Assembly: GCA_036675475.1 (NCBI GenBank)
Contig: JAKFEY010000001.1
Location: 10,442 to 74,441, forward strand
Length of the DNA stretch: 64,000 nt
Source: Vicinamibacterales bacterium
Lineage (GTDB): Bacteria; Acidobacteriota; Vicinamibacteria; Vicinamibacterales; SCN-69-37
Reading direction: 5' to 3'
Part shown: piece by piece, positions 14,481-47,138 of the stretch
Layout of the letters: each line of letters starts with the position of its first letter
How positions within the stretch are numbered: the first letter of the stretch is position 1
Notes under the pieces: generated by a model
Databases searched by the model: none
Seen by the model: only the letters and a program-made list of their open reading frames with translations
Told to the model about the DNA's origin: nothing
Translations under genes and position numbers: made by a program

Positions 14481-14481
14481 G

Positions 14482-16241: not shown

Positions 16242-17104
16242 TGGTTGCTGGTTGCTGGCTTGCCCCCCGGAGCTATGGCGAAGGGGGGGTGCTGGTTGCT
16301 GGTAAGAACAGTGCCAGCTTCGAAAGTCGTGTCGCGTCCGTCCACGATGCGCACATCGGCCACACCGGCTTCGCGCGCGGCCTGGCAGGCGCGCAGCTTG
16401 GCGATCATGCCGGCCGTGGCGCTGCCGTCGTTCACCATCGCCTCGAGCGCCGCGGCGTCGAGCGCATCGATCAGCTGTCCGCCGGCATCGAGCACGCCGG
16501 GCGTGCTGCCGGCCACGAGCAGCCGCGCGGCGCCGATGGACGCGGCGACGTGCGCCGCCATGACGTCGGCGTTGACGTTGAGCAGATCGCAGGCCTGAAG
16601 GCCTGCGCTCCCGCCGATGCTCGCGATCACCGGCACGTAGCCGAGGCCGCACAGGTCGGCCACAATCTGCGCGTCGCCGGCCAGCGGCCGGCCGACCAGG
16701 CCCGGATCCACGGCCGAGCCCGACACCGTTTCCATCGCGCTCACGCGCTCGCACAGGGCCAGGCCGGCGTCCACGCCTGTGAGGCCGACGGCGCGAACGC
16801 CGCGCGACGTCAGCGCCGCGACCAGCTCCGTATTCGCCGTCCCCGCAAGCACCGCCACCACCGTATCGAGCGTGGCCTGATCGGTGACGCGGATGCCGTC
16901 GCGCTTCACCGGCTCGATGCCGCGCCGCGCCAGCTCCGCGTCGATGGCCTTGCCACCGCCGTGCACGACGACGAGCGGCGTGTGCGCGGCCATCGCCGCC
17001 ACCGCGCCGGCCGTGCGCGCGCGATCCGCGGCCGATTCGATGAGCTCTCCGCCCAGCTTCAGCACCGTGACGCGCCCATGGGAAATTGGAAAAGGCGTCG
17101 TCAC
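16238..17104 (-). CDS. argB: acetylglutamate kinase
   Basis: Trimmed ORF 16238..17941 to GTG 17104 (GTGA overlap with the argC stop). VLKLGGELI, VVVHGGG, NVNADVMAAHVA. Has an unusual ~20-aa tail (TSNQHPPFAIAPGGKPATSNQ) encoded by a short tandem-repeat tract. Confidence 0.88.
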   Translation of the reverse strand: MTTPFPISHGRVTVLKLGGELIESAADRARTAGAVAAMAAHTPLVVVHGGGKAIDAELARRGIEPVKRDGIRVTDQATLDTVVAVLAGTANTELVAALTSRGVRAVGLTGVDAGLALCERVSAMETVSGSAVDPGLVGRPLAGDAQIVADLCGLGYVPVIASIGGSAGLQACDLLNVNADVMAAHVAASIGAARLLVAGSTPGVLDAGGQLIDALDAAALEAMVNDGSATAGMIAKLRACQAAREAGVADVRIVDGRDTTFEAGTVLTSNQHPPFAIAPGGKPATSNQ

Positions 17105-18108
17105 AGCAACCCCGCCCGCTCGTCGAAGCCCATCGCGACGTTGAAGTTCTGCACGGCCTGGCCCGCGGCGCCCTTGACGAGGTTGTCGATGCACGACACC
17201 AGCACGAGCCGGTGCGTGGCCTCGTCGAACTTCCAGCCGATGTCGCAGAAGTTCGTGTGCGCCACGTGCTTCACTTCGGGCAGCGCGTCGCCGGTGAGCC
17301 GCACGAACGGCGCCTCGTCGTACGCCGCGATCAGCGCGGCTTCGATCTCGAACGCCGTGACTTCCGGGCGCATGCGCACGTAAATCGTCTCGAGGATGCC
17401 GCGGTCGAGCGGCACCAGGTGCGGCACGAACGTGACGTCCGTTCCGAGCTGCTGCTCGATTTCGGCCGTGTGCCGGTGCGCGAAGATGCCGTACGCCGCC
17501 ACGCTGCCGTGCACTTCGGAAAAGTGCGTGCGATCGCTCGGCGTGCGGCCGGCGCCCGAGATGCCCGACTTGGCATCGATCACGATGCCCTGCGACAGAT
17601 TCAGCAGGCCTGCATCGGCCAGCGGGCCCAGCGCGAGCAGGGCCGCGGTCGGGTAGCAGCCCGGGCACGCGACGACGTTCGCGTCGGCGATCTCCGCCTT
17701 CGCCAGTTCCGTGAGGCCATACACGAGGCCATCGGGCTCGGAGTTGGTGGCCGGATACCACTTCTTCCGCAGATCCAGGTCGCTCAGGCGGAACGCGCCC
17801 GACAAATCGAAGATGCGCTTCACGCCGCGCGCCTGCAGGTCGGGCACGAGCGACGCCGACGCCGCCTCGGGCACGGCGAGAAACACCACATCCGCGCCGG
17901 CCAGCCGCTCGATATTCAAAGGCTCGAGCTGGCCGTCCCACACGCGATTGAGCCGGGGCAGCGGGCGCGCCGCGCTGTCGGGGCTCGAGGTCATGGCCGC
18001 GCGCAGCGACGCCGCCGGGTGCCGCGCGAGCAGGCGGAGCAGTTCCTGCCCGGCATATCCACTGCCTCCCGCCACGGCCACCGATACGGTGCTTGCATAA
18101 TTATGCAT
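17101..18108 (-). CDS. argC: N-acetyl-gamma-glutamyl-phosphate reductase
   Basis: VAVAGGSGYAGQELLRLL, ACPGCYPTAALLAL (catalytic Cys), SGAGR, DNLVKGAAGQAVQN. Confidence 0.9.
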   Translation of the reverse strand: MHNYASTVSVAVAGGSGYAGQELLRLLARHPAASLRAAMTSSPDSAARPLPRLNRVWDGQLEPLNIERLAGADVVFLAVPEAASASLVPDLQARGVKRIFDLSGAFRLSDLDLRKKWYPATNSEPDGLVYGLTELAKAEIADANVVACPGCYPTAALLALGPLADAGLLNLSQGIVIDAKSGISGAGRTPSDRTHFSEVHGSVAAYGIFAHRHTAEIEQQLGTDVTFVPHLVPLDRGILETIYVRMRPEVTAFEIEAALIAAYDEAPFVRLTGDALPEVKHVAHTNFCDIGWKFDEATHRLVLVSCIDNLVKGAAGQAVQNFNVAMGFDERAGLL

Positions 18109-18129
18109 CGTATGGTTTATTTATACACG
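18092..18129. promoter_or_regulatory. ARG-box-like operator in the 22-bp argC/argR divergent gap
   Basis: Perfect 14-bp palindrome TGCATAATTATGCA (18094-18107). It resembles the TGAATwwwwATTCA ARG-box core and overlaps the argC ATG. A degenerate second box atggtttatttatacacg follows 2-3 bp later. Confidence 0.45.
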
Positions 18130-18130
18130 A

Positions 18131-18586
18131 GTGAAGGCATTCCGGCAAGCGCAGATTCTGGAGCTCGTCGACAGCGCCGAGGTGCACTCGCAGCAGGAGC
18201 TGCTCGCGCGGCTCGGCAAGCGCGGCATCAAGACGACGCAGGCGACGCTCTCGCGCGACATTCAGGAGCTCGGCCTCGTCAAGCGCGCGGCCGACGGCGC
18301 CTACGCGCGCGCGACGGCCGCGAACGCGCCCGTCGCGGCGCCGAGCGATTCGCTGCGCCGGCAGATTGCGGTGCTGTTGCGGGGCGTCGAGCGCGTCGAC
18401 CAGATGCTGGTGCTGCGCACCGATCCGGGGCAGGCGCAGGCGCTGGGCGTGGCGATCGATCGCACGCGCCTCGAGGAAGTGGCCGGCACCGTGGCCGGCG
18501 ATGACACGATTTTCGTGCTGTGCCGCGGCAAGGCCGCGGCGGCCGAGGCAGAAGATCAGTTCGTGGACTGGATGAAAGGGAAATAG
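18131..18586 (+). CDS. argR: arginine repressor
   Basis: RQAQILELVDSAEVHSQQELLARLGKRGIKTTQATLSRDIQELGLVK (winged helix). C-terminal GTVAGDDTIFVL (arginine-binding core). GTG start. Confidence 0.85.
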   Translation: MKAFRQAQILELVDSAEVHSQQELLARLGKRGIKTTQATLSRDIQELGLVKRAADGAYARATAANAPVAAPSDSLRRQIAVLLRGVERVDQMLVLRTDPGQAQALGVAIDRTRLEEVAGTVAGDDTIFVLCRGKAAAAEAEDQFVDWMKGK

Positions 18587-18594
18587 GAGACGAG

Positions 18595-19854
18595 ATGGCA
18601 GCAGAGAAGATCATCCTTGCGTATTCAGGCGGCCTCGACACGTCGGTGGCCATTCCGTGGCTGGCCGACCGCTTCGACGCCGAGCTCATCGCCGTGACGA
18701 TGGACCTGGGCCAGGGCAAGGAGCTCGACGATGTGCGCGAGCGCGCGCTGGCCGTGGGCGCCAAGCGCGCGCACGTCATCGATCTGCGCGAGGAGTTCGC
18801 GCGCGACTACATCCTGCCGGCGCTGCAGGCGGGCGCGGTGTACGAGGGCAAGTACCCGCTGGCGACCGCGCTCGGCCGTCCGCTCATCGCGAAGCATCTC
18901 GTGGAGATCGGCCGCATCGAAGGCTCGAAGACGATCGCGCACGGCTGCACGGGGAAAGGCAACGATCAGGTGCGCATCGACGTCTCGGCGCGCGCGCTCG
19001 AGCCGCAGGTGAAGGTGATCGCGCCGGCGCGCATCTGGGGCCTCACGCGTCCCGAAGAAATTCAGTACGCGAAGGACCGCAACATCCCGGTGCCGGCCAC
19101 GGTCGACAGCCCGTACAGCACCGACACGAACCTCTGGGGCCGCTCGATCGAGTGCGGCTGCCTCGAGGATCCGTGGTGCGAGCCGCCGGACGACATCTAT
19201 CTGCTGACCAAGTCGCCCGCCGAGGCGCCCGACACGCCCGCGTACGTCGAGATCGAGTTCGAGAAGGGCGTGCCCGTGAAGATCAACGGCGTGGCCATGA
19301 GCCTCGTCGAGCTGATCACGAGCCTCGAGACGATTGCCGGCGCCCACGGCGTGGGACGCCTCGACATGGTCGAGAACCGCCTCGTCGGCATCAAGTCGCG
19401 CGAGATCTACGAAGCGCCCGCGGCCGTGGCGCTGCACACCGCGCACAAGGAGCTCGAGACGATGGTCATCCCGCGCGATCTCGAGCGGCTGAAGCGCCAG
19501 CTCGGGGCCGTGTATGCGGACCTCGTGTACAACGGCCTCTGGTTCACGCCCACGCGCGAAGCGATCGACGCTTTCGTCGCGAAGGTCCAGGAGCGCGTCA
19601 CCGGCGTCGTCCGCCTCAAGTTCTTCAAGGGCGACTGCCGCGTCGTCGGCCGCAAGTCGCCGTTCGCGCTGTACGACCACGCGCTGGCGACCTACGATGC
19701 CGGCGATGCGTTCGATCACACCGCGGCGGAAGGCTTCGTGAAGATCTGGGGCCTGCCGGTGGAGACGGCCGCGCGCAAGTCGCCTGAAAAGGTGGCGGCG
19801 GCGCTCAAGGCCGAGTCGAAGGTTCCGGTGGGCCACGCTGGAGAGAAGGCCTAG
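18595..19854 (+). CDS. argG: argininosuccinate synthase
   Basis: Trimmed ORF 18520..19854 to ATG 18595. AYSGGLDTS, HGCTGKGNDQVR, STDTNLWGRS. Confidence 0.92.
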   Translation: MAAEKIILAYSGGLDTSVAIPWLADRFDAELIAVTMDLGQGKELDDVRERALAVGAKRAHVIDLREEFARDYILPALQAGAVYEGKYPLATALGRPLIAKHLVEIGRIEGSKTIAHGCTGKGNDQVRIDVSARALEPQVKVIAPARIWGLTRPEEIQYAKDRNIPVPATVDSPYSTDTNLWGRSIECGCLEDPWCEPPDDIYLLTKSPAEAPDTPAYVEIEFEKGVPVKINGVAMSLVELITSLETIAGAHGVGRLDMVENRLVGIKSREIYEAPAAVALHTAHKELETMVIPRDLERLKRQLGAVYADLVYNGLWFTPTREAIDAFVAKVQERVTGVVRLKFFKGDCRVVGRKSPFALYDHALATYDAGDAFDHTAAEGFVKIWGLPVETAARKSPEKVAAALKAESKVPVGHAGEKA

Positions 19855-19855
19855 C

Positions 19856-21226
19856 GTGGCAGCGATGTGGAGCGGCCGTTTCGACGGCCGCCCCGATCCC
19901 GACGTCTTCGAGTTCGGCCGATCGTTTTCGTTCGATCGCCGGCTCGTCGACGACGACATTACCGGCAGCATTGCCTGGAGCGAGGCGTTGGCCTCGGCCG
20001 GCGTGCTGTCGGCGGCGGAGGCCAACGCCATCGCGACGGCTTTGGAAGAGATCCGCATCGAGATTGGCGGGTCGGCTGATTCACTTGCGACCGATGACGA
20101 GGACGTCCACTCCTTCGTCGAGCGCCTGCTGATCGAGAAGGTCGGCGACGCAGGGCGGCGCCTGCACACCGGCCGGTCGAGGAACGAGCAGGTGTCGCTC
20201 GATCTGCGGCTCTATCTGCGCCGGCGGATTCCCGTGATTCAGCAGGAGCTGCGCGCGCTCGGGATCGCGCTCGTCGAACGCGCCGAGGCGCTCGGCGATG
20301 CGGTGATGCCGTCGTACACGCACCTGCGCCGCGCGCAGCCTGTGCTGGCGGCGCATTTCCTGCTGGCGCACGTCGCGCCACTCGAGCGCGACCTCGAGCG
20401 CTTCGCGCAGGCGGCCGGCGCCGCGGATGCGATGCCGCTCGGCTCGGGCGCGATTGCCGGCACGAGCTACGACATCGACACCGAAACGCTCGCACAGCGG
20501 CTCGGCTTCACGAAGGTGGTGGCCAACAGCCTCGACGCCGCCGGCGACCGCGATTTTGCCGCGCAGTTCCTGTTCGCGGTGGCGATGTCGGCCATTCATC
20601 TGAGCCGTCTCTGCGAAGACCTGATTATTTTTTCGACCGACGAGTTCGCGTTTTTCGATCTCGACGACGCGGTGGCGACAGGCAGCAGCCTGATGCCCCA
20701 GAAGAAGAACCCGGATCCGCTGGAGCTGGTGCGCGGCAAGTCGGCGCGGGGCATCGGCCACCTGATGCAGTTCCTCACGCTGCTCAAGAGCGTGCCGGCC
20801 GGCTATTCGAAGGATCTGCAGGAAGACAAGGAATCGATCTTCGACGCCGAAGACACGATCATCGGCAGCCTGAAGTCGACGGCCGCGGTCGTGCGCTCGC
20901 TGAAGTTCAATCGCGCCGCCGCGCGCGAGGCCGCGTCGGGCCTGCTGCTCGCCACGGAAGTGGCCGATTACCTCGTCTCGAAAGGCATGCCCTTCCGCCG
21001 CGCTCACGAAGTGACCGGCGGCATCGTGCGCGACCTGGTCGCAAGGAAAACAGATTTTGCGTCGCTCTCGATAGAGCAGTGGAAAGCGTACGACGCGGCT
21101 TTCGACGCCGATGTGACGGACTGGCTCACGCCTGAAGCCGCGGTGCGCAACCGGCGCACGCCGCAATCGACGAATCCCGATGCTGTGCGGGCGCGACTTC
21201 TGGCAGCGAAGCGCCGATTGTCGTAG
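19856..21226 (+). CDS. argH: argininosuccinate lyase
   Basis: MWSGRF, TGSIAWSEAL, GSSLMPQKKNPDPLELVRGK (fumarate-lyase signature). GTG 19856; ATG 19865 is the alternative start. Confidence 0.92.
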   Translation: MAAMWSGRFDGRPDPDVFEFGRSFSFDRRLVDDDITGSIAWSEALASAGVLSAAEANAIATALEEIRIEIGGSADSLATDDEDVHSFVERLLIEKVGDAGRRLHTGRSRNEQVSLDLRLYLRRRIPVIQQELRALGIALVERAEALGDAVMPSYTHLRRAQPVLAAHFLLAHVAPLERDLERFAQAAGAADAMPLGSGAIAGTSYDIDTETLAQRLGFTKVVANSLDAAGDRDFAAQFLFAVAMSAIHLSRLCEDLIIFSTDEFAFFDLDDAVATGSSLMPQKKNPDPLELVRGKSARGIGHLMQFLTLLKSVPAGYSKDLQEDKESIFDAEDTIIGSLKSTAAVVRSLKFNRAAAREAASGLLLATEVADYLVSKGMPFRRAHEVTGGIVRDLVARKTDFASLSIEQWKAYDAAFDADVTDWLTPEAAVRNRRTPQSTNPDAVRARLLAAKRRLS

Positions 21227-29052: not shown

Positions 29053-29087
29053 GCCTCTGGTCTCGGGCCTCTGGCCTCTGGCCTATA
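29053..29087. repeat. heptanucleotide tandem array (GCCTCTG-type, 5 units) abutting the thiO ATG
   Basis: gcctctg gtctcgg gcctctg gcctctg gcctata. The last unit runs into ATG 29087. Confidence 0.8.
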
Positions 29088-30169
29088 TGATCGTCCATGT
29101 GAACATCGCCATCGTCGGCGCCGGGATCGTCGGGTGCGCCATCGCGCACGAGGTCGCGGCGCGCGGGGCGAAGGTCACGGTGTTCGAGCGGCGCGGGGTG
29201 GCGCGCGGGGCGAGCTGGGCGTCGGCGGGCGTGCTTGCGCCGTGGATCGAAGCGCAGGAGCAGGGACCGCTGCACGAGATGTGCGCGCGCAGCCTCGGGA
29301 TGTACGACGACTTCGTCGAGCGCGTGCGGCGCGACGGCGGCGCGGCGTTCGAGTACGCGCGGCCAGGCACACTCGAAGTCGCCTATACAGAGGAACAGGC
29401 CGAGGCGCTGCAACAAACCGCGCGCACGCTGGCCGCGTCCGCTGCGCGCGCGGAATGGCTCGATCGCGATGCGGCGCGCGCCCTCGAGCCGGCCGTCAAC
29501 GAGTTCATCCTCGGCGGCCTCCGCATCGATGAACATGGCTTCGCGGAGATGCCCGGCATGGTCGACGCAATCGCCTCGGCGGCGCGCATGCGCGGTGCGG
29601 CCTTTCATGCGCCGGTCGACGTCGCGAAAATCGAACCTGCGCCGGGCGGCCTCGTCCGCGTGCAGGCCAACGGCACCCCGCAAACCTTCGATCGCGTCGT
29701 CATCGCCGGCGGCAGCTGGACCAACCGGCTGAAGGCCGGGGGCCCGAGAATCAGTCCTGTCAAGGGACAGCTCGTGCGGCTGCGCTTTGATGCCGCTCCG
29801 GCCACGCGTGTGCTATGGTCCGACGCCTGCTATATGGTTCCCTGGCAGGACGGGACGCTGCTGGTTGGCGCGACAATGGAAGACGCCGGCTTCGACGAGC
29901 GCCCGACATCGGCGGCGGTGGCGTCGCTGCTGGCCGCGGCGGCGCTGCTGGTGCCGGCCACGCGCGACGCGACCTTTGTGGACGTGCGCGCCGGGCTGCG
30001 GCCCGCGCCCTCGGACGAGGAGGGCGTGCCGTTTATCGGGCCGTCGCCGTCGATCGCCAACGTGACGATTGCGGCGGGACATTTCAGGAACGGCGTCCTG
30101 CTGGCGCCGCTCACGGCGAAGCTGGCCGCGGATCAGGTGCTGGGAGACTCGAATGCCGAAGCTGACTGA
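29087..30169 (+). CDS. thiO: FAD-dependent glycine oxidase-like oxidoreductase (DAO family)
   Basis: IAIVGAGIVGCAIAHEVAARG (dinucleotide fold). C-terminal AAGHFRNGVLLAPLTA typical of ThiO. Substrate is not provable from sequence. Confidence 0.7.
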   Translation: MIVHVNIAIVGAGIVGCAIAHEVAARGAKVTVFERRGVARGASWASAGVLAPWIEAQEQGPLHEMCARSLGMYDDFVERVRRDGGAAFEYARPGTLEVAYTEEQAEALQQTARTLAASAARAEWLDRDAARALEPAVNEFILGGLRIDEHGFAEMPGMVDAIASAARMRGAAFHAPVDVAKIEPAPGGLVRVQANGTPQTFDRVVIAGGSWTNRLKAGGPRISPVKGQLVRLRFDAAPATRVLWSDACYMVPWQDGTLLVGATMEDAGFDERPTSAAVASLLAAAALLVPATRDATFVDVRAGLRPAPSDEEGVPFIGPSPSIANVTIAAGHFRNGVLLAPLTAKLAADQVLGDSNAEAD

Positions 30170-30464
30170 CGATCAAATCAACGCGCGGCTGCCAAAACTG
30201 CAGGGATGGTCGCGGCAGGGCGACGCGCTCACGCGCACGTTCGCCTTCCGCTCCTACGCCGATGCCGTGGCGTTCGTCGTCCGCGTCGCGTTCGAGGCCG
30301 AGGCCAACGATCATCATCCCGATGTCGCGTGGAGCTTCCGCAAGGTGACGCTGAACTGGTCGACGCACAGCGACGGCGGCATCACCGACAAGGACTTCGA
30401 CGGCGCCGCCGCCGCCGATCGCATCGCCTCGTCCACGCCGCAGTCGACCGCCCAGAAGTCCTGA
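30153..30464 (+). CDS. pterin-4-alpha-carbinolamine dehydratase (PCD/DCoH)
   Basis: Trimmed to ATG 30153. LQGWSRQGDALTRTFAFRSYADAVAFVVRVAFEAEANDHHPDVAWSFRKVTLNWSTH (HHP catalytic motif). Confidence 0.85.
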   Translation: MPKLTDDQINARLPKLQGWSRQGDALTRTFAFRSYADAVAFVVRVAFEAEANDHHPDVAWSFRKVTLNWSTHSDGGITDKDFDGAAAADRIASSTPQSTAQKS

Positions 30465-30468
30465 CCGC

Positions 30469-30948
30469 ATGCAGCTGAAGGGCAGCTACAGCGCGCGTGA
30501 AGTGGCCGCCTTCACCGGGCTGTCGGCCCGCCAGCTGCAGTGGTGGGACACGCACGGCGTCTTCCCGCCCGCCGTCGCGCCGAAACGCACCGCCGCCGGC
30601 GGCTTCACCGAGCGCCGCTATTCGCCCATCGACACGCTGGATCTGCTCGTGCTCGCCGAGCTCCGCCGCCGCAAATATTCGGTCGACGACATCCGCCGCA
30701 TCATCGAGGTGCTGCGCACGCGCTTCGGCGCGCGCCCGCACGAAACGCTCGAGAACGCCGGCCGCATGACGCTGCTCACCGACGGCACGGAGATCTTCGT
30801 GCGGATCGGCGACCGCTATTTCAATTTGCTGCGGGATCCCGAGCAGCCGCTCCTCGTGGGCGAGGAGCGGCTGAAGGGCGTCAAGGTGAGACGAAAGGCT
30901 AGTCGATCGGGAAAACGTCTTCCACGCCCTCGCCGGGCCGCGGAATGA
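30469..30948 (+). CDS. MerR-family HTH regulator
   Basis: [25 protein letters not shown] ... [20 protein letters not shown]. The 3' 50 nt overlap the convergent BMC-H gene. Confidence 0.7.
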
Positions 30949-31189
30949 CATGCACGCCGACGAGCTGACCGACTTTGCGCGCGGCGGCGGCGCCGGCGTC
31001 GGTGGCCGCTTTCACCGACGCGGTGTCGCCGCGGACGATGGCGGTGACCATGCCGGCGTCGACTTTCTGCCAGCCGACGAAGTCGACGTTCGCGGCTTTC
31101 ACCATCGCGTCCGCCGCTTCGATCATCCCGACCAGGCCGATCGTTTCGACCATGCCGAGCGCGTCGCCGTCATGTTTCTTCTGCGCCAC
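30899..31189 (-). CDS. bacterial microcompartment shell protein, single-domain BMC-H (PduA/EutM/CcmK type)
   Basis: Trimmed ORF 30899..31780 to GTG 31189. [77 protein letters not shown] aligns along its full length with the Pfam00936 consensus. Confidence 0.9.
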
Positions 31190-31191
31190 GT

Positions 31192-31887
31192 TTACTTCTT
31201 TCCGAAGCCGGTGACGACCACGTCGAGGTTGTGGCTCGCGCGCAGGCCGTAGATGCCGTCGGTCGACGCGAGCTTGTCGGCGCCGATGAGCGCGGCCTTG
31301 TCGAACGACGCCACGACCTGGCCATTGATCGCGCACGAGGCCGTGCCGTCCTTCACCGTCCAGGCGATCGTCTGGGTGACGCCGTCGGCGCCGGCCTTGT
31401 TGACGGCGGCGTGCGCCGCGGGCCGCACGCGGCCGCCTTCGCCGGGCGCCGGCGCGAAGTTCACGACCTTGCCGCCACTGAAGCCACGCACGAGGTAGGT
31501 GCCGTTGCTGTACGCGAGGCAATACACCAGGTTCGGCGCGTCGGTGTCGAGATCCTTGCCGCCGATGAAGATGCCGTACGGATGCGGATGGCCCGCATCG
31601 GGCTTGGCTTCCTTGAACGTCGCGCTGACGGTGTAGTTGCCCGACGCCTTGTTGGCGTCGTTCCAGTAGAACGCGGCCGGACCGATGGTCAGGTGCAGGT
31701 CGTCGCCCGCCTTCGCGAACTTCGAGTCGTTGATGGTCAGGCCCTTTTTCACGGCCCCGGCGTCGATCTTGCCCTTCCATCCGTCGACGGCAATGCCGCC
31801 GCCGGTCACCTTGCGGTCGGCGTCCTGGGCCAGGGCAAGGCCCGGCACCGCGAGAGCGAGCGCGAATACGAGAGAGATCCTCTTCAT
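31192..31887 (-). CDS. secreted protein, possible concanavalin/LamG-like jelly-roll (DUF1080-like)
   Basis: Trimmed to ATG 31887. [22 protein letters not shown] is a Sec signal. Beta-rich. C-terminal [18 protein letters not shown]. The fold call is tentative. Confidence 0.55.
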
Positions 31888-31897
31888 AGAGCGAATC

Positions 31898-33022
31898 CTA
31901 CAGGATCCGGCCCCGGGCGGCCACAGGAACGCTTTCGGCCACCATCTCGCCGTCGAGCAGGTGCACGATATCGACCATATTCGAGACGACGCAGGAGTGA
32001 TTCGGGATGATGCGCACGCGATCGCCAATCGCGAGGGCAGGCGCATCCGGCGCGACTTTCACCGTGGCGTGCTCTTCGGACAGGCGCTCGATCGTGAAGC
32101 CGTCGTGCGGCCGCAGCGCCGCATCCGGCGAGGGGGAGAGGGCGCCGTACCCGGCAAGCGGCGAAAACCCGCGCGCGCCGTCGTTGGTGAGGGTCTTGCT
32201 GCCCGCGTCCAGGATGATTCGGCCGGGATGCTTCGCGACCACCGTTGAAAGCACCGTCAGCGCGCAGTCGTCCACCGTCGCCGCGCCGAGGCCGACCTGC
32301 GTGCGGTCGAAGTACACGTAGTTCCCAGGCCGCAGTTCGGTGGGGCCCGGATGGGTCACCGAGAAGCGCGCGGTTGGCGTGGAGCCGATGCTGATCTCGT
32401 CAATCGCCACGCCCTTCTTCCGCATGTGCGCGGCCAGCCGCGTCATCGCGTTCACTTCTTCTTCCGCAATCAGCCGCAGCGCCGCTTCGGAGGACGCGTG
32501 GTAGCCGTGGCCCGCGTGGCTCAGGATGCCGCGCAGCTTCAGCCCGGGCAGCGTCGCGACCAGCGAAATCAGATGCGGCGCTTCAGGCGACACCGGGTCG
32601 ACCCCGCAACGATGAAAGCCGACGTCGATCTTCACGAGCACGTCGAGCGTCCTGCCCGCCCTCTTCATCACATTCGCCCACGCCGTCGCCACTTCCGCAT
32701 CATCAACAATGATCGACAGGCGGGTGCGATCCATGAGCGGCAGGATCAGGTCCTGCTTCGACGGATGAACGGGATAGGGAATGCGGATGTCGGGGATGCC
32801 GGCGTCGGCAAACACCGCCGCCTCCGACGGCTTCGCGCAGCAGATGCCGGTGGCGCCGCGCGCGAGCTGCTGCCGCGCGATGGCGGGCACCTTGTGTGTC
32901 TTGGCGTGCGGGCGCAGCAGCAGGCCGGCCGCGTCGGCCGCGCGCTGCATGGTGTCGATGTTGCGGGTCACCCGGGCGGTGTCGATGACGACCGCGGGTG
33001 TCGGGAGGTCCGTGATCTGCAC
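31898..33022 (-). CDS. D-threonine aldolase / D-serine dehydratase-like PLP enzyme (alanine-racemase-N fold)
   Basis: LPTPAVVIDTARVTRNI, RPHAKTHK (PLP lysine), GILSHAGH, PGNYVYFD, IIPNHSC. Confidence 0.8.
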   Translation of the reverse strand: MQITDLPTPAVVIDTARVTRNIDTMQRAADAAGLLLRPHAKTHKVPAIARQQLARGATGICCAKPSEAAVFADAGIPDIRIPYPVHPSKQDLILPLMDRTRLSIIVDDAEVATAWANVMKRAGRTLDVLVKIDVGFHRCGVDPVSPEAPHLISLVATLPGLKLRGILSHAGHGYHASSEAALRLIAEEEVNAMTRLAAHMRKKGVAIDEISIGSTPTARFSVTHPGPTELRPGNYVYFDRTQVGLGAATVDDCALTVLSTVVAKHPGRIILDAGSKTLTNDGARGFSPLAGYGALSPSPDAALRPHDGFTIERLSEEHATVKVAPDAPALAIGDRVRIIPNHSCVVSNMVDIVHLLDGEMVAESVPVAARGRIL

Positions 33023-33032
33023 GGATGCAACG

Positions 33033-34268
33033 TTAACTCATGAAGCCCGCAAAACGCTTCTCGTCGATCTTGTAGCCTGGAAAGACGTTCGAGGCATCGC
33101 GCAGCTCGAGGTGACGCGTCACGACTTCGGCAAAGACGTCGCGGAAGTCCGTGGTGATCGCGAGATCGCGTCCCTGCCAGCGCTGCTCGACCTCGAGGCC
33201 GGGCCAGCGGCCGTAGACCTTGCGTCCTTTCACGCCCGCGCCGAGCGCGATCATGGCGTTGCCGTGGCCGTGGTCAGTGCCGCGGTTGCCGTTCTCGGCC
33301 ACCGTGCGGCCGAACTCAGACATCGTGAGGATCACGACGTCGCGCATGCCCTCGCCGAGGTCGGTCGCCAGCGCCGCGATGCCGCGCGCGAAGTCGTCAA
33401 GACGGTTGGCGATCTGTCCGGTGGCCGCGCCTTCGTTGGCGTGATGGTCCCACTGGCCCGATTCCGCGAACGCGATCTCGAGCCCGACGTCGGCCTTGAC
33501 CAGCTGCGCGATCTGCCGCAGCGACTCGCCGTACGGCGACCGCGGATATTGCGCGCCGTTGGCGGGCGTATAGCGCGCGGGGTCGACGTCTTTCAGCGCG
33601 CGCACGGCGTCGAAGGCGTCCTTGCCGGTGCGGCCGAGGACCTGGTCTGCGGCCGCGGCGTACTCCGCTTCGAAGGACGCCTGCACGTTCGCGGTGGCCT
33701 GGCCCGCGCGGATGCCGAACTGATCGAGCCGCGCAATCGCCAGCGCGGGCGCCGTGCCCTGCAGTGTGCGCGGCAGCTGCGGCGCCAGCGCCACGGCGCG
33801 GAACGGCGTCGCCTTCTGATGTTCCTTCGCGTGCAGATACCGATTGAGCCAGCCGTCGCGCGTGCTCTTCACGCCCGGCGTGCCGCTCTCCATGTAGTCC
33901 TGCGCGTCGAAGTGCGAGCGCGTGTCGTCGTGCGATCCGGTGGCGTGAACGATGGCCAGCTCGCCGCGATCCCAGAAGGGTTTCAACGGCGACATGCGCG
34001 GATTGAGCCCGAAGAAGCCGTCGAGATCGATCGCGCCGTCGGGCCGTCCAGGCTGTCCCACCGCGATGCTCGGCCGCGCGCGGTAATAGCCCGCGTCGCC
34101 GAACGGCACGATCATGTTGAGGCCGTCGACTGCGCCGCGCTGGAAGATGGTGATGAGCACCTTGTGGCGCTCAGCTGCCCACGCCGTCCGCGCCAGAAAG
34201 GTGGGCGCGAAGCCCAGGCTCACGAGCGCCATGCCGCCGTTCTTGAGGAAGATGCGCCTGTCGATCAT
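33033..34268 (-). CDS. DUF1501 (sulfatase-fold) protein with Tat signal
   Basis: MIDRRIFLKNGGMALVSLGFAP (twin-Arg). FQRGAVDGLN, TGSHDDTRSHFDAQDYME, TMSEFGRT, GTDHGHGN. Start trimmed to ATG 34268. Confidence 0.85.
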   Translation of the reverse strand: MIDRRIFLKNGGMALVSLGFAPTFLARTAWAAERHKVLITIFQRGAVDGLNMIVPFGDAGYYRARPSIAVGQPGRPDGAIDLDGFFGLNPRMSPLKPFWDRGELAIVHATGSHDDTRSHFDAQDYMESGTPGVKSTRDGWLNRYLHAKEHQKATPFRAVALAPQLPRTLQGTAPALAIARLDQFGIRAGQATANVQASFEAEYAAAADQVLGRTGKDAFDAVRALKDVDPARYTPANGAQYPRSPYGESLRQIAQLVKADVGLEIAFAESGQWDHHANEGAATGQIANRLDDFARGIAALATDLGEGMRDVVILTMSEFGRTVAENGNRGTDHGHGNAMIALGAGVKGRKVYGRWPGLEVEQRWQGRDLAITTDFRDVFAEVVTRHLELRDASNVFPGYKIDEKRFAGFMS

Positions 34269-34376
34269 TGCTGCGCCTTTCAACGCGTTGGCCTTCCGCA
34301 AGCTTTCTTCGCGCTCGCGATTAGACGCTCGCGCTCAGAAACTTGCTCACGGCCACCGCTCTACAATCGATTCCGT

Positions 34377-35969
34377 TTACTTCCGCTGAAACTCCGGCGA
34401 CCCGAGCAGCAGTGCGAGCTGGCCGGGTTTGTCGGCGGCTTTTGCCACGGTGCCGCGCGTCGCGGGCGACAGCGCGCCGGGGGCAACGATCGTTCCTGGC
34501 TCGACGCGGTTGGCGGCGACACGCGTGCCGGGCAGCCGGTTCGAGACCAGCGCCACCGCGAAGTTCATGCGGTTGATGAGCGCGCCGCTGTTGACCCACG
34601 ACGCGGCCGTGTCGTCATAACCCGTCGGCGGCTGCGCGCCGTAGAGCGGCATGCCGAGCGTGCGCAGCTGCTGCACGAGCGGCCCGGCGTTGCGCACCTC
34701 GGCGCCCGTCGCGCGCAACGCGCTCACGACGAACTCGAACGGCGTCTTGACCTTCGCGCCGCGGGCGGCCTCGGCCATGAACTCCGGCGACGTGATGATC
34801 GCGCGCGTGACCTTCTTCAGATCGCCGCCGCTGTCGAGAAACACCTTCGCGGCGCGATCGACCAGCGCCTGCGGCGGCGTGTCCGACACGAACCGGCGCG
34901 CGAGCTTGCGCGCGATGTGCTTCGCGGTGGACGGATGCGCGGCGACGATGTCGAGCACGCGCTCGCCGTCGCGCTGGCCGCCGCCGGCGGGCAGGGTGTG
35001 GCCGAGCACGACCTTCGCGCCGTTGTCGTGAATGCGCTCGTTGAACTGGAAGTCGCCGCCGCCGCGCCGCGGCGCCTCGATCGTCCAGCCGGTGAACGCG
35101 CGCGCGACTTCGATGACGTCTTTCTGCGTGTAGCCGCCGTCGACGCCGAGCGTGTGGAGCTCGAGCAGCTCGCGCCCGTAGTTCTCGTTGAGCCCGCGCG
35201 CGGGCCGCGCCGGCTGCTGCGGTTGCTGCGGCATCGGATTGCCGCGCCCCGCCATGCCCGGCCGGCGGCTGCGGCCACGCCGCGCCTGCGGGGCCTGCGG
35301 CGCTTCCGGCGCCGCGCTCATCCAGTTGTCCAGATACCAGAGCATCGCCGGGCTCTTCGCCGTCTCGCCGAGCATGTCGCGGAAGTTGCCCAGCACGTGC
35401 GGACGGATGGCCTCGCGCTCGTACTCGGTGAGATAAAACCGCGCGAACTGGCCCTTGCCCGCAAACACGTTGAAGTGGTTGAACCAGAAATCGACGAGCA
35501 CTTCCTCGAGCTGCCGGTCGCTGTAGACCGCGCGCAGCAGCTTCTGCTGCGACAGTTCGAGCAGCGGCAGGTTCGCCTGCGTGCGCTGCCGTTGCGCCCC
35601 GGCGGGAGGCGCCATCTGGCCGGGCTCGCCCGGCGGAGGCGTCATCTGCGGAGGCGCGGCGGCCTGGTTCCGCTGCTGCGGGGGCGTGTAAAACCGGCGC
35701 GCCATCTCCGAGCTGCTGAGGCCAAGCGTCTCGAATGACGCGAGGCGGGCCTCGACTGCCTGCGCGTCGATTTTCGCTGGCTCGAGCTGGAGCTCGATGT
35801 ATTTCTCGAGCCCCATGGCCCGCACCCGCTCGATATCTCCCGCGCGGGCACCGTAGCCCAGCCGTCCCAGGACGTGCCCAATCGTGTCGTCCTGGGCCGC
35901 GGATCGCGCCGACAGGGTGGCAGTGGCTGCCACCAGGACCGAGATGGTGATCGCCTTCAGAAACTTCAT
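34377..35969 (-). CDS. DUF1800-domain exported protein
   Basis: Signal peptide. HVLGRLGYGARAGD, LVDFWFNHFNV, ELHTLGVDGGYTQKDV. Usual partner of DUF1501. Confidence 0.85.
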   Translation of the reverse strand: MKFLKAITISVLVAATATLSARSAAQDDTIGHVLGRLGYGARAGDIERVRAMGLEKYIELQLEPAKIDAQAVEARLASFETLGLSSSEMARRFYTPPQQRNQAAAPPQMTPPPGEPGQMAPPAGAQRQRTQANLPLLELSQQKLLRAVYSDRQLEEVLVDFWFNHFNVFAGKGQFARFYLTEYEREAIRPHVLGNFRDMLGETAKSPAMLWYLDNWMSAAPEAPQAPQARRGRSRRPGMAGRGNPMPQQPQQPARPARGLNENYGRELLELHTLGVDGGYTQKDVIEVARAFTGWTIEAPRRGGGDFQFNERIHDNGAKVVLGHTLPAGGGQRDGERVLDIVAAHPSTAKHIARKLARRFVSDTPPQALVDRAAKVFLDSGGDLKKVTRAIITSPEFMAEAARGAKVKTPFEFVVSALRATGAEVRNAGPLVQQLRTLGMPLYGAQPPTGYDDTAASWVNSGALINRMNFAVALVSNRLPGTRVAANRVEPGTIVAPGALSPATRGTVAKAADKPGQLALLLGSPEFQRK

Positions 35970-35984
35970 ACAGCAGAATTAGAC

Positions 35985-36953
35985 ATGTCCCGCCCGGCGC
36001 TCGTTACAGCCACAGACGACATTCTCAGCCAAATCTACGATCAGACGTGGGCAATCTGGAGTGACGGCCTCGACCGGGGCAGTTACGAGCGCTACAACCG
36101 GGCCCAGATGGCGACGACCTGGGGAAAAACGCACCTGGACCGCCTCGCGCTGGTCGAAGGGGACACTGTGCTGGCCAGCGCCAAGCGGTATCGCCTCACC
36201 CTGCAGGTGGACGGCGAAGACATGCCGTGTCTCGGGATTGGCGCGGTGTTCACCCCGCCGGACCGGCGCGGGCAGGGCCACGCCGCGTCGCTCATCGAGC
36301 GCATGATCGAACAGGCCGCCGGCGAGGGCGCCGGCATGGCGCTGCTGTTCTCCGAAATCGATCCCGCTTTTTACGCGCGCCTCGGATTCGAGCCCATCCC
36401 CATCGGTGAGGCCACGCTCGCGCTGCGCCCGCAGTCCCGCGAAGGCGCGCCCGCCGTGCTCATGCGCGGCGGCGACGACCGCGACATCGACAACATCGCA
36501 TCGATGCATGCCGCGCGTGCCGCGCGCTACGGCCTCTCGCTGGCGCGCGCGCCCGAATACATCCGCCACGCCATCTCGAAGCGGCGGCTGCTCGCCGCGT
36601 TTGGCGCGCCGGGCCTTCGGCACGTCGAGTACTTCATTACCGAAGAGGGCGGCAACGCCGTCGCCTATATCGTGGTGACGCGCGGGCCCGAGGGGCACGT
36701 GCTCGAGGAATGGGGCGATCGTGATCCCACCGGCGCGCGCGTGGGCGCGATGCTGCAGGTGCTGGCGGCGCGCACGCCGACGGAAGCGGCCGTGAAGCTG
36801 CGGACGTGGCTGCCGCCGGACTTCGCGCCGCCGCAGCTCGAGCGCATCGACGAGAAGCCGGCCGCCGAAGTCGGCATGCTTCGCGGCATCGGGCGCGGCA
36901 CGCCGCGCGTGCCCGCGTCCGGCGTGTTCTATCTCAAGGCTGACGCGTTCTGA
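35985..36953 (+). CDS. GNAT acetyltransferase (Eis-like, with C-terminal extension)
   Basis: Trimmed to ATG 35985. IGAVFTPPDRRGQGHAASLIERMI ... FYARLGFEPI. Confidence 0.7.
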   Translation: MSRPALVTATDDILSQIYDQTWAIWSDGLDRGSYERYNRAQMATTWGKTHLDRLALVEGDTVLASAKRYRLTLQVDGEDMPCLGIGAVFTPPDRRGQGHAASLIERMIEQAAGEGAGMALLFSEIDPAFYARLGFEPIPIGEATLALRPQSREGAPAVLMRGGDDRDIDNIASMHAARAARYGLSLARAPEYIRHAISKRRLLAAFGAPGLRHVEYFITEEGGNAVAYIVVTRGPEGHVLEEWGDRDPTGARVGAMLQVLAARTPTEAAVKLRTWLPPDFAPPQLERIDEKPAAEVGMLRGIGRGTPRVPASGVFYLKADAF

Positions 36954-38853
36954 TCACGAACGGCCGCAGCACGCGGCCGGCTTCCTTGCCGTCCGACTTC
37001 ACGATGGCGCGCGCGAGAAATTCGCCTTCGCCAAGCAGCGCCACGTCGACGCGCGCCTCGCCCGTCCGGCGCCCGGGCTGTGGCGCGGCGCTGAATGTCA
37101 CCGGCACCTTCGTCAGCGCCAGTCCGTCCTCGCGGCGCGAGATCTCAATGTCGACGCTCGTGCCGTCGAGCAGCGCCGGCACGTCCGAGTACAGCTCGAT
37201 GTAGGTCTGCAGCACCGTGCCGGCCGGCCCGTCAGTCAGCAGCGCGAGCTTCTGCGTGGCGGGATGCTGCTCCGACAGCAGCAGATCGGACCAATGCAGC
37301 TGCCCGGCGCCGTGCAGGCGCGCCTCGAACGTGTGGCCGACGCTGCCGTCGCGGCCCGACGCGTCCGCAACCGCATACCGAAGCGAATAGATGCCGGGAT
37401 CGACGACGAGCGCCGAGGCGAAATGCTCGACGCGGCCGTTGTGCGGCCCGAGCGACGGCTCGACGTCGCTGCCCGCCAGCCGCCCGTCGCGATCGACGAG
37501 CGTGAATCCCATGGCCGCATCCACCGACGGGTTCAGCGTGCGATCGACCTCCGACGCGATGATCACCTTCACCTTGCCGCTTTCATCACGCACGATATAC
37601 GGCGACACCTTGATGCCGACCGACGTCAGATCGATGGGCGATCGCAGCGCTTCGCCCAGGCGCGGGCCCAGCGACGCCGCGTCGAGCGCCGCGTCCATCG
37701 CAAACTCGCGGCGCGCGCGCACCGTCAGGCCGCGACGTCCCACACCAATCTTGATCTTGTGCGTGCGGCCGTCGCGTTCGCCCGGCTGCGGCTCGAACGA
37801 GAGCAGGTAATACCCCGACACCTCGGTGCTGACGCGGCTGAAGCCAAGCCACGGATTCGACGGCGACAGTGGCACCACTGCGCCGCCGGCCAGGCCCGCC
37901 AGCAGCTCGAGTCCTTCTTTCTCGAGGGCGCGATCGGCCGATCGCGACCGCGACATCGTGGCCGCCCCGGCTTCGAACGGCGAAGACTCCATCTGCAGCA
38001 CGTACAGCGAGACTTGCGACTCGGCGGCGGTGGGCGCAACCCATCCCAGATCCTGCACGCCCTGATCGAGCACCAGCCCCTCCGACAGCAGCACCATTGT
38101 CTTGCGCGTCCGCCCGGCGCGAAGACGCCGCATCGTCTCGCGCAGACCGACCAGCGACTCTGCCGTGCGGCTGCGAATCTCACCGCTGACGATGCGCGCG
38201 TCGCTGATGACCATCCGCTGGCAGAGCGCCATCTCGTCGGTGCTCATGTTGCCCGCGCATTCGCGCTCGAGCACATCGCGCAGCACATCCTGCTGCCCGC
38301 GCACGATGGCCTTGGCCTCGTACACGCCCACGCGCGTGCCATGCTGCATCGACGGGCCGCGGCCCGCGACGCGCTTCAGCGTTTCGGCCACCAGCGCGTG
38401 GTTCGACGTGAAGTCGAGCACCGGGCCCGCGCCCGGCAAAAGCTGCAGGCCGACGCGATCGTTCGAATTCAGCGTGCCGAGAAACTTCGCGGCCGCGTCG
38501 AACACCACGCGCCCCGTACCCGCCTTGATGTTGTTCTGATCGATGACGAGCATGATCAGCCGCCCGCCGCGGCTGTCCAGATTGCTCGAGTAATAGGCGG
38601 GTGGCGGCCCGGGATCGACCAGCCGCCGCAGTGACACGAACTCCGCCGACGCGATCTCGCGCCGCTTGCCGTCGACCTCGAGCGTGAAGTCCGCCGGCGT
38701 CAGATCCGCAACCGGCCGCCCATCGTCATCGACGACGACCACATCGACGGCGACGCGGTCGACACCCGATCGGAACGTCGTCTGCGGCTGCTGCGCAGGC
38801 GCCGCCTGCTGCGCGCCCAGAAGCACCGCGCCAGCCAGCCAGAAGATCAGCAT
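36934..38853 (-). CDS. VWA-domain exported protein (VWFA-related acidobacterial type, TIGR03436-like)
   Basis: QTTFRSGVDRVAVDVVVVDDDGRPVADLTPADFTLEVDGKRREI is the family-typical N-terminus. Then LIMLVIDQNNI and NDRVGLQ (VWA fold). Confidence 0.8.
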   Translation of the reverse strand: MLIFWLAGAVLLGAQQAAPAQQPQTTFRSGVDRVAVDVVVVDDDGRPVADLTPADFTLEVDGKRREIASAEFVSLRRLVDPGPPPAYYSSNLDSRGGRLIMLVIDQNNIKAGTGRVVFDAAAKFLGTLNSNDRVGLQLLPGAGPVLDFTSNHALVAETLKRVAGRGPSMQHGTRVGVYEAKAIVRGQQDVLRDVLERECAGNMSTDEMALCQRMVISDARIVSGEIRSRTAESLVGLRETMRRLRAGRTRKTMVLLSEGLVLDQGVQDLGWVAPTAAESQVSLYVLQMESSPFEAGAATMSRSRSADRALEKEGLELLAGLAGGAVVPLSPSNPWLGFSRVSTEVSGYYLLSFEPQPGERDGRTHKIKIGVGRRGLTVRARREFAMDAALDAASLGPRLGEALRSPIDLTSVGIKVSPYIVRDESGKVKVIIASEVDRTLNPSVDAAMGFTLVDRDGRLAGSDVEPSLGPHNGRVEHFASALVVDPGIYSLRYAVADASGRDGSVGHTFEARLHGAGQLHWSDLLLSEQHPATQKLALLTDGPAGTVLQTYIELYSDVPALLDGTSVDIEISRREDGLALTKVPVTFSAAPQPGRRTGEARVDVALLGEGEFLARAIVKSDGKEAGRVLRPFVIRTRQP

Positions 38854-45111: not shown

Positions 45112-46383
45112 GTGAATCATCCAGCCCTGAAGCGCGCGCTCGGCCCGTGGGACCTGACGGCCCTCGGCGTCAATCAGGTGATTGGCACCGGCGTGTTCCT
45201 GATGCCGGCGCTCGTGGCCGGGCAGGTGGGATCGTGGAGCACGGTCGCCGTGCTGGCGGTCGGCGGCCTGTCGATGTTCATCGCGCTTTGTTTCGCCGAA
45301 GCGTCCAGCCGGGTGGCGACGACCGGCGGCGCCTACATCTACACGCGGCAGGCGTTCGGCCGCTTCATCGGCTTCGAAGTGGGCTGGATGACGTGGTTCA
45401 CGCGCGTGGCGAGCTGGGCCGGCGTCGCATATGGATTGACGATGTATCTGGCGCGGTACTGGCCGGCGCTCGACGACGGCACCGCGCGTGGGCTCTTCCT
45501 GACGGGCGTGTTCGGCGTGCTGACGGCCATCAACATCCGCGGCATCCGCCAGAGTGCGTGGGTCGTGAACTCGCTGACCATCGGCAAGCTGGTGCCGCTC
45601 GCCGTGTTCGTGGCCGGCGGCCTGGCGTTCGTGGAATGGTCGCGGGTGATGCCCGTCAAGCCGTGGCCGCCGTTCGATCAGACGTCGGCGGCGCTTCTGT
45701 ATCTGATCTTCGCGTTCGGCGGCTACGAGGTGGTGCCGGTGCCGGCGGGCGAGGCGCGGCGCCCGGAGCGCGACGTGCCGTTCGCGATGGTGATGACGAT
45801 TGCGATCGTGACGCTGCTCACCATCCTCGTGCAGGTGGTGGCGCAGGGTGTGCTGGCAAATGTGGAGATCTCGAAGGCGCCGCTTGCCGACGCGGCCGTG
45901 ATCTTTCTGGGCGCGGGGGGCGCGCTGCTGCTCACGATTGGCGCCGTGATTTCCACGACCGGCAACAACATGGGGCAGTCGCTGTCGGGATCGCGCAGCC
46001 TGTTTGCGCTCGCCGAGCAGCGCGACTTGCCGCAGGCGATGGCCTGGGTGCATCCGCGGTGGCGCACGCCGGTGGTGGCGATCGTGATCACGTCCGCGGT
46101 GGCGCTGGCGCTTGCCGTGACGGGTTCATTCTCGACGCTCGCGCTCGCGAGTGCCGTCAGCCGGTTGCTGGTCTACGCGGGCACCGCGGCCGCCGTGCTG
46201 GCGCTGCGGCGCGAAGGGCGCGCGCCGTTCACGATTCCCGGCGGCCCCGTGGTTCCCGTCGCCGCGCTGCTGGTGTGCCTGGCGCTGGTGGCCGCCGCGA
46301 CGTCGGAGCAATTCCGCATCGGCGGCCTCGCGCTAATCGTCGGCGCCGCACTGTTCGCGGTAGCCCGCTGGTCCGACCCTTAA
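45112..46383 (+). CDS. APC-superfamily amino-acid permease
   Basis: LGPWDLTALGVNQVIGTGVFLMP, about 12 hydrophobic segments. GTG start only 11 bp from the divergent Rieske ATG. Confidence 0.85.
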   Translation: MNHPALKRALGPWDLTALGVNQVIGTGVFLMPALVAGQVGSWSTVAVLAVGGLSMFIALCFAEASSRVATTGGAYIYTRQAFGRFIGFEVGWMTWFTRVASWAGVAYGLTMYLARYWPALDDGTARGLFLTGVFGVLTAINIRGIRQSAWVVNSLTIGKLVPLAVFVAGGLAFVEWSRVMPVKPWPPFDQTSAALLYLIFAFGGYEVVPVPAGEARRPERDVPFAMVMTIAIVTLLTILVQVVAQGVLANVEISKAPLADAAVIFLGAGGALLLTIGAVISTTGNNMGQSLSGSRSLFALAEQRDLPQAMAWVHPRWRTPVVAIVITSAVALALAVTGSFSTLALASAVSRLLVYAGTAAAVLALRREGRAPFTIPGGPVVPVAALLVCLALVAAATSEQFRIGGLALIVGAALFAVARWSDP

Positions 46384-47138
46384 CTGCTGACGTAGTCCTG
46401 GCTGTGCCGTTCGAGCAGCCGGTACTTCACGGCCGCCATGAAGAAGAACAGCGGCAGCAGCAGTTCGGCCGCGGTCGCGAGTAGATTCGCGGTCCAGAGC
46501 AGATAGCGGCTTTCCACGCCAAAGACCGTGGCGAACATCAGGCCGAGCAGCACGTCCACCACCATGCCCGCGATCATGCCGGCGAGCACGCCGAAGACCG
46601 GCGCGCGATAGGTGCGGCGCTCGTCGGCCGTCATTTCGCGATAGCTGCGATAGATGGCGATGCAGGCGGCAATCGAGGCGGCAAACACCAGCATGCCGAG
46701 CGCGATCATCGTGCCGTCGAGCGCGGCGCGCGCCGCGCGATAGGCGGACGTGCCGATGGCGGCGGCGATGATGGGCGCAACGGCGACCAGGGCGGCGGCG
46801 ACGTAGAGCGCCTTGATGTTGCCGCCGCGCAGCCACGGCCGGCGATGCGGAAAGGCCAGGCCGAAGTGCAGGAACACGGTGGCCGACAACAGGCCGGCGC
46901 CGAGCACCAGGCCGTCGATGGCGGCGATCCCGAGCCGGCTTTCAGGCAGCCGGATGGCGGCAATCAGAAGGGGAAGTCCGAACGCCAGCTCCGACGCGGC
47001 CAGCGCGAGGAACAGCCGCGCGCGGCGATCGGCGCGATGCCGCCGCCACACGACGATGGCCACGATCAGCGCGAGCAGCGCCGGCGCGCTTTGCAGCGGG
47101 TCGATGCCCCACCCGTACATCATGTCTGCGCTGCCCAT
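46380..47138 (-). CDS. stand-alone polytopic (about 7-TM) membrane protein resembling a sensor-kinase N-terminal membrane module
   Basis: Seven hydrophobic stretches, no soluble domain. Resemblance judged by pattern only. Confidence 0.55.
   Translation of the reverse strand: MGSADMMYGWGIDPLQSAPALLALIVAIVVWRRHRADRRARLFLALAASELAFGLPLLIAAIRLPESRLGIAAIDGLVLGAGLLSATVFLHFGLAFPHRRPWLRGGNIKALYVAAALVAVAPIIAAAIGTSAYRAARAALDGTMIALGMLVFAASIAACIAIYRSYREMTADERRTYRAPVFGVLAGMIAGMVVDVLLGLMFATVFGVESRYLLWTANLLATAAELLLPLFFFMAAVKYRLLERHSQDYVSS

Follow-up and report, generated by a model that had tools for sequence, protein, structure and literature searches.

The microcompartment type ACI is exclusive to Acidobacteria and occurs mainly in subdivisions 4 and 6 (Sutter et al. 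2021, Nat Commun 12:3809, PMC8217296). Its locus encodes an aldolase (pfam00596) with a C-terminal encapsulation peptide (EP), a bacterial microcompartment (BMC) shell hexamer of the BMC-H type, a BMC-P triplet and a short protein that has three cysteines and an N-terminal EP. The aldehyde dehydrogenase of ACI lies on a satellite locus, and the authors of the catalogue suspect a role for metal binding in loci of this type (PMC8217296). The same catalogue lists an 'occasional' extra ACI BMC-H 'by itself', with interface motifs that are 'mostly standard' (PMC8217296, Supplementary Data 2), the basal inter-hexamer motifs being defined as KAAN and (P/A)RPH, and proposes, with CcmK3/K4 as the example, that changing the permeability of the shell is a general role of satellite shell genes (PMC8217296). 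For ACI or Vicinamibacterales compartments, a search of papers published after 2021 found nothing relevant. Here, we analysed a BMC-H gene carried by a 64,000-nucleotide stretch of DNA from a Vicinamibacterales bacterium (assembly GCA_036675475.1, contig JAKFEY010000001.1, positions 10,442 to 74,441), hereafter the window. The gene, located at 30899..31189 on the minus strand and encoding 96 amino acids, is likely, judging from its sequence and its relatives, a distal satellite BMC-H paralog of the Acidobacteria-specific ACI compartment, the main locus of which is known from related genomes.

The open reading frame (ORF) that starts with GTG at 31189 is a true single-domain BMC-H, in agreement with an earlier, sequence-only reading of the window. 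PF00936 covers residues 10-85 of the 96 (E=5.1e-27; 94.1 bits against a cutoff of 24.5), and the protein is collinear and gap-free, in unpermuted domain order, with residues 11-97 of PduA (3NGK) and residues 2-89 of the Haliangium ochraceum (HO) BMC-H (HO-5815, Hoch_5815), an alignment that extends without gaps to EutM. The GTG start is supported because orthologues in loci L010 and L019 carry ATG at the same codon. Across the whole domain, the protein shares 60-65% identity with the basal facet hexamers PduA and HO BMC-H, and it retains K26, N29 and R79 (PduA numbering), which we take to be the tiling residues of PduA. The edge motif KAAN is likewise kept; in contrast, PRPH has become PRPG in the window protein and PRP[A/V/G] across its clade, the His being replaced by Gly, Ala or Val. 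The pore loop also departs from the known hexamers: as the sequence-only reading had stated and the alignment to 3NGK confirmed, the window protein has K-V-D-A-G-M where PduA has K-I-G-S-G-L, and HO BMC-H has K-T-G-G-G-Y, which places an Asp where PduA, EutM, CcmK and HO BMC-H have the pore Gly. In PduA, the pore lining is formed by residue 40 and the flanking backbone amides. The affiliation of the relatives fits an ACI host, an acidobacterium of subdivision 4 or 6: the nearest loci and proteins, including all named close homologues, are labelled Vicinamibacterales or Acidobacteriota, with locus L018 at 98% identity, and identical copies occur on soil metagenome contigs in the same gene string.

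No further BMC component was detected in the window, as had been claimed from the letters. A Pfam sweep of its approximately 50 called genes revealed no PF03319, PF00171, PF06130, PF00596, RuBisCO or glycyl-radical enzyme, and tblastn of the window gave no match to BMC-P seeds or to the aldolase, BMC-P and Cys protein of ACI loci; as a positive control, those tblastn queries matched every main locus fetched. The window holds no complete main locus, having one BMC-H and neither BMC-P, aldehyde dehydrogenase, phosphotransacylase (PTAC), class II aldolase, RuBisCO nor glycyl-radical enzyme. It shows the setting of a satellite as the catalogue defines it, a shell gene distal from any BMC-P, with no PF03319 and no tblastn match within the 64 kb.

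We scanned species-representative genomes and listed the best 80 loci, which separated two classes of BMC-H. Class S, the class of the window gene, was present in at least 59 species genomes; its proteins are 73-99% identical to the window BMC-H and without exception carry the pore loop K-V-D-A-G-[L/M] with the edge motifs K[A/T]AN and PRP[A/G/V] or ARPA. Class M proteins are 70-77% identical to the window BMC-H and carry K-I-G-A-G-Y, KAAK and PRPH. The class M gene belongs to an operon in which a class II aldolase precedes BMC-H, three EutN/CcmL (BMC-P) genes follow directly, and a small Cys protein comes last; the operon is the ACI locus that Sutter et al. 2021 described. Main loci of this ACI build were seen in L076, L079, L081, L083, L084, L086, L088, L089, L092-L094, L096 and L097. 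In L076, the class II aldolase has 318 amino acids, with its domain at residues 24-200 and an EP-like tail ending LTYAELQTLVDEVVRQLV, and the small protein of the class M locus has an amphipathic N-terminus and a C-terminal CVIEPSVPCDHCGYC.

The main locus was found in the same genome as the S gene in three related genomes. BC2.43 carries the S locus L053 and the M locus L076, and AMX-MBFR-57 carries L041 (S) and L096 (M). In MFD01275.bin.2.72, the S gene (L066, at 3.31 Mb) and the M gene (protein P0212, at 3.85 Mb) are located approximately 0.54 Mb apart on one contig of 5,974,930 bp. The sequence-only reading had named beforehand, as the outcome that would speak against an orphan gene, a main locus elsewhere with this gene as its satellite; that outcome is what these three genomes contain.

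Nine positions separate the two classes without overlap, among them G44D in the pore and Y47[L/M], and median identity is 88% among S proteins and 74% between S and M. Across 383 database proteins, the pore Asp and the absence of the PRPH His were coupled in 161 cases and uncoupled in 6; furthermore, K[A/T]AN was found in 118 of 120 S-type matches and KAAK in 118 of 119 M-type matches. Loss of the edge motifs is reciprocal, in that S keeps the Asn of KAAN and loses the His of PRPH, whereas M keeps the His and loses the Asn (KAAK). This reciprocal deviation might reflect complementary heterotypic edges within the facet.

Moreover, the S genes are under strong purifying selection (median dN/dS 0.07 over 400 pairs), and the S-type BMC-H matches the M type in its degree of conservation. 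No other protein of the neighbourhood is conserved so well: identity is 73-86% for BMC-H, compared with 55-61% for the pyridoxal 5'-phosphate (PLP) enzyme encoded nearby and 50-60% for the DUF1800 protein. A gene that stands alone, with its 3' end overlapped over 50 nt (30899-30948) by a MerR ORF, could be viewed as the decaying remnant of a lost locus or as a recent chance insertion, functionless in either case; chance insertion was an outcome that the sequence-only reading had entertained. The low dN/dS, the conservation relative to the neighbours and an ORF that is intact at a fixed syntenic position in 59 species genomes all argue against this explanation, as does a G+C content at third codon positions (GC3) of 0.87, the same as in the neighbouring genes, and we consider it most improbable. 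This compositional match likewise gives no indication of recent horizontal transfer of the BMC-H gene.

If the S gene serves the ACI compartment as a satellite, its protein would be made independently of the main operon, and S hexamers would be expected to co-assemble with M hexamers in the shell facets because S keeps the tiling residues K26, N29 and R79. Their incorporation would change passage through the shell: Asp for Gly beside the pore-lining residue would place six carboxylates round the pore, with metabolites or ions affected, and the bulky Tyr after the pore loop would give way to Leu or Met. S would then act in the manner proposed for CcmK3/K4 in beta-carboxysomes, and the S gene probably tunes shell permeability. 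CcmK3 and CcmK4 are likewise BMC-H paralogs that are obligately encoded away from the main operon and separately regulated, and permeability tuning has been proposed for them (PMC8217296). The parallel has its bounds: ACI is a catabolic metabolosome and no carboxysome; S is a single gene, whereas CcmK3/K4 are a pair; and mixed hexamers are known for CcmK3/K4, whereas for S they are a candidate arrangement.

Pursuing the same comparison, S might form no homohexamers at all and instead enter mixed hexamers with M, as CcmK3 does with CcmK4, so as to change pore chemistry sub-stoichiometrically. Such a partnership would be consistent with the 74% identity of the two proteins, with the fact that each departs from the basal motifs at an edge position of its own, and with the separate expression that the promoter-like element suggests. 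However, S keeps every residue expected of a self-sufficient hexamer and is conserved to the same degree as M, and we regard obligate mixing as unlikely.

The satellite assignment extends what the catalogue reports. The ACI satellite BMC-H listed there shares the phylum and subdivision and is also a lone BMC-H away from the main locus; however, it is called 'occasional' and given without detail, whereas the S gene described here occupies a fixed site in at least 59 species genomes, is defined by its pore Asp and lost His, and has a promoter-like element of its own. The novelties are incremental and consist of this fixed syntenic site, the combination of Asp pore and lost His, and a putative leaderless-type promoter recognized by its motif. 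Several points weigh against the assignment. Among the best 80 loci, the closest species genomes (L018 and L019) gave the S locus only, and co-occurrence of S and M rests on three genomes. Normal tiling is assumed although S has lost the His of the (P/A)RPH edge motif, and the predicted effect on the pore is read from an alignment to PduA. Furthermore, a 2-nt coupling to the gene of an exported protein is odd for a cytoplasmic shell protein, and 'H_marine', the class to which the catalogue assigns the lone ACI BMC-H, is a candidate match for this clade.

We next consider the genes around BMC-H. S genes were invariably flanked by housekeeping genes, and their usual block runs GNAT(-) / DUF1800 DUF1501 PLP / BMC-H / MerR(-) pterin dehydratase(-) ThiO(-). 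Downstream of the S gene, MerR, one of its two most frequent conserved neighbours, was found in 45 and ThiO in 47 of the 59 species genomes. Upstream, the PLP gene was present in 37 of 59, counting all arrangements: directly adjacent in 33, with a wider gap in two, and separated from BMC-H by the exported-protein gene in another two. It was absent upstream in 21, which had DUF1501 without PLP (3/59), only a divergent GNAT (12/59) or something else (6/59); in the remaining genome (L037), the upstream side of the locus is truncated, and the PLP gene is downstream on the opposite strand.

In the window, Pfam searches bore out the five-gene string proposed from the letters, a head-to-tail, same-strand order of DUF1800, DUF1501, PLP enzyme, exported protein and BMC-H, with gaps after DUF1501 of 10, 10 and 2 nt. 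All five genes are on the minus strand. The DUF1800 protein (34377..35969; PF08811, E=3e-140) has an N-terminal signal-like sequence and is a context gene, as is the DUF1501 protein (33033..34301; PF07394, E=4e-34), which bears a twin-arginine signal (DRRIFLK) and is no BMC component. The PLP enzyme (31898..33022; 374 amino acids) is of fold type III and belongs to the D-threonine aldolase / D-serine dehydratase family (PF01168, Ala_racemase_N, and PF14031, D-ser_dehydrat). The exported protein (31192..31887, with its ATG at 31887 rather than 31888) has 231 amino acids.

The PLP gene often immediately precedes the S gene, the 64 kb contain neither BMC-P nor a signature enzyme, and S is missing the PRPH His, which might alter tiling. 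These features would accord with a BMC-H that forms sheets, tubes or a scaffold instead of a classical compartment, in a unit with the PLP aldolase that holds or channels its aldehyde product. The enzyme itself speaks against this. Its residues 6-371 of 374 align with residues 24-376 of 379 of the D-threonine aldolase 4V15, and this end-to-end alignment with a free-living D-threonine aldolase leaves no room for an encapsulation peptide; the terminal helix that the sequence-only reading had suggested looking for is absent at both the N- and the C-terminus. In addition, 12 of the 59 genomes keep the S gene in its place by MerR/ThiO with no DUF1800, DUF1501 or PLP gene nearby, most S genes have a promoter-like element that lies on or beyond the stop codon of the PLP gene, and the three S-carrying genomes named above also hold a full main locus. 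Lone BMC-H genes of these phyla, moreover, have already been filed under the ACI type (PMC8217296). We judge a unit of BMC-H and PLP aldolase quite unlikely. The aldolase had been put forward as the only cargo-like neighbour, and its lack of a terminal extension, combined with the dispensability of its gene beside the S gene, ruled it out as BMC cargo. Of the two uses first proposed for the BMC-H, service as a satellite of a distal locus is supported, with an ACI main locus in three related genomes, and use outside a compartment with the PLP aldolase as cargo is not supported.

Collectively, the string around the BMC-H gene is inherited gene order plus a lineage-specific insertion, with no shared pathway, because the neighbours are dispensable, the PLP enzyme has no extension and the exported protein is confined to a narrow lineage. 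Two other roles for S seem rather unlikely: that its Asp-ring hexamer would be a dedicated conduit for ACI substrate or cofactor traffic, for example a cation or metal gate, or that it might serve a compartment-independent role from its constitutive housekeeping position in those Vicinamibacterales lineages where no main locus was retrieved.

The exported protein is found between PLP and BMC-H in a narrow lineage only. As described earlier, it begins with an N-terminal signal-like sequence, and the BMC-H gene starts 2 nt after its stop codon (TAA at 31194-31192). No Pfam family matched its 231 residues in a Pfam search. An AlphaFold model (pLDDT 89.7) shows a concanavalin-like beta-sandwich, with CBM66, DUF1080-type and galectin-like proteins as the closest folds, which bears out the previous label 'jelly-roll-like'. 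With 3267 hits, its family of hypothetical proteins is large; only homologues at least 74% identical and one at 50% (L011) adjoin BMC-H, and homologues at 62-63% identity are found in unrelated contexts. This distribution ruled out the exported beta-sandwich protein as a functional partner of the BMC-H. Invariant residues in its alignment include H100-P-H102, C123, C185, W37 and W75, which suggests a conserved site and a disulfide.

The S genes share a conserved motif, ALGM, after their start codon. A TAGAAT-, TAGACT-, TAGAGT- or TAAGAT-like hexamer was present at most 60 nt upstream of this motif in 39 of 70 unique S loci, compared with 1.7% of random 60-nt windows. In most of these 39 loci, 6-12 nt separate the end of the hexamer from the BMC-H start, with no Shine-Dalgarno sequence evident between, and the hexamer often opens with the TAG stop of the PLP gene. 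In the window, a -10-like hexamer, TAGGAT (31895..31900, minus strand), takes its first three bases from the PLP TAG stop and ends 7 nt before the exported-protein ATG; on this motif evidence, it is a candidate leaderless-type promoter for a two-gene unit of exported protein and BMC-H. The exported-protein gene thus appears, on the same pattern, to have been inserted between promoter and BMC-H, giving that two-gene unit. A scan of 30300-36200 for canonical sigma-70 promoters and terminators yielded nothing above chance. Across the window, 6 of 46 genes have the leaderless layout, with 6-9 nt between hexamer and start codon and no evident Shine-Dalgarno sequence; TAGAAT-like hexamers also lie upstream of 36934-38853(-), 46380-47138(-), 47204-48580(+), 54460-55983(-) and 10063-11100(-). 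This distribution suggests that leaderless transcripts are common for the first genes of operons in the host organism. As a separate observation, short tandem repeats fill the spacer between PLP and BMC-H, approximately 100 nt upstream of BMC-H, in L023, L027, L040, L048, L053 and L054, with repeat units such as GGAAGCC, CGTTCCCGT, GAACTGA/GAACCC and CCAATC.

An Asp pore is also found outside the S class. Pyrinomonadaceae of subdivision 4 (L073:10001-10258, L078, L085, L087 and L090) have an Asp-pore BMC-H of their own, with K-I-D-A-G-L and P[R/Q]PH. A C-terminal tail, PVLxTGETTRKKISGSV, is conserved on these subdivision 4 proteins, and the subdivision 6 S type is without it. In L073, the Asp-pore BMC-H is 3 kb from a satellite locus of aldehyde dehydrogenase and BMC-P, a proximity that speaks for the satellite reading of S.

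Vicinamibacterales are abundant soil bacteria, and ACI is one of the large microcompartment types without a known substrate. Two fixed hexamer types, one encoded in the operon with a neutral pore and the other by a distal, probably separately expressed gene with an acidic pore, offer a handle for modelling pore selectivity and for synthetic ACI shells. For a lone BMC-H in an acidobacterial window, the default reading becomes a satellite gene, not an orphan organelle.

Some entries of the scan stood apart. Three loci labelled Acidimicrobiia (L041, L042 and L096) and two labelled Bifidobacteriaceae (L062 and L064) carry Vicinamibacterales S or M loci in the same synteny, and these labels of the metagenome-assembled genomes (MAGs) are probably wrong. 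In L091:10001-10595, the gene immediately after an M-type BMC-H encodes the Cys-protein homologue, and the BMC-P triplet was not detected there; either the locus is a variant or this long-read MAG is misassembled at that point. Double-length BMC proteins P0001 (161 amino acids) and P0121 (162 amino acids) scored top with the S query and the M query alike; they are perhaps tandem fusions, or ORFs mis-called on short contigs.

Downstream of the BMC-H gene, and convergent with it, is the MerR-family regulator (30469..30948, plus strand; PF13411). MerR and BMC-H are 20-130 nt apart in most related genomes, and for this reason the C-terminal extension of the window MerR looks lineage-specific. Beyond it are two housekeeping genes on the plus strand, pterin-4a-carbinolamine dehydratase (30153-30464; NF002017) and the glycine oxidase ThiO (29087-30169; TIGR02352, 283.8 bits against a cutoff of 250.8). 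The remaining Pfam content of the window comprises an arginine biosynthesis cluster, peptidases, oxidoreductases and a restriction-modification/helicase pair. The arginine cluster spans 12289-21226 on both strands and encodes ornithine transcarbamylase (OTCase), ArgJ, a GNAT protein, a class III aminotransferase, a semialdehyde dehydrogenase (ArgC-like), ArgR, argininosuccinate synthase and argininosuccinate lyase. The pair, at 55994-61203(-), consists of a 1179-residue ORF containing an Eco57I/MmeI-type methylase and a 718-residue SNF2/DEAD helicase ORF, which overlap as called by approximately 490 nt and may represent a defence island or a frameshifted fusion.

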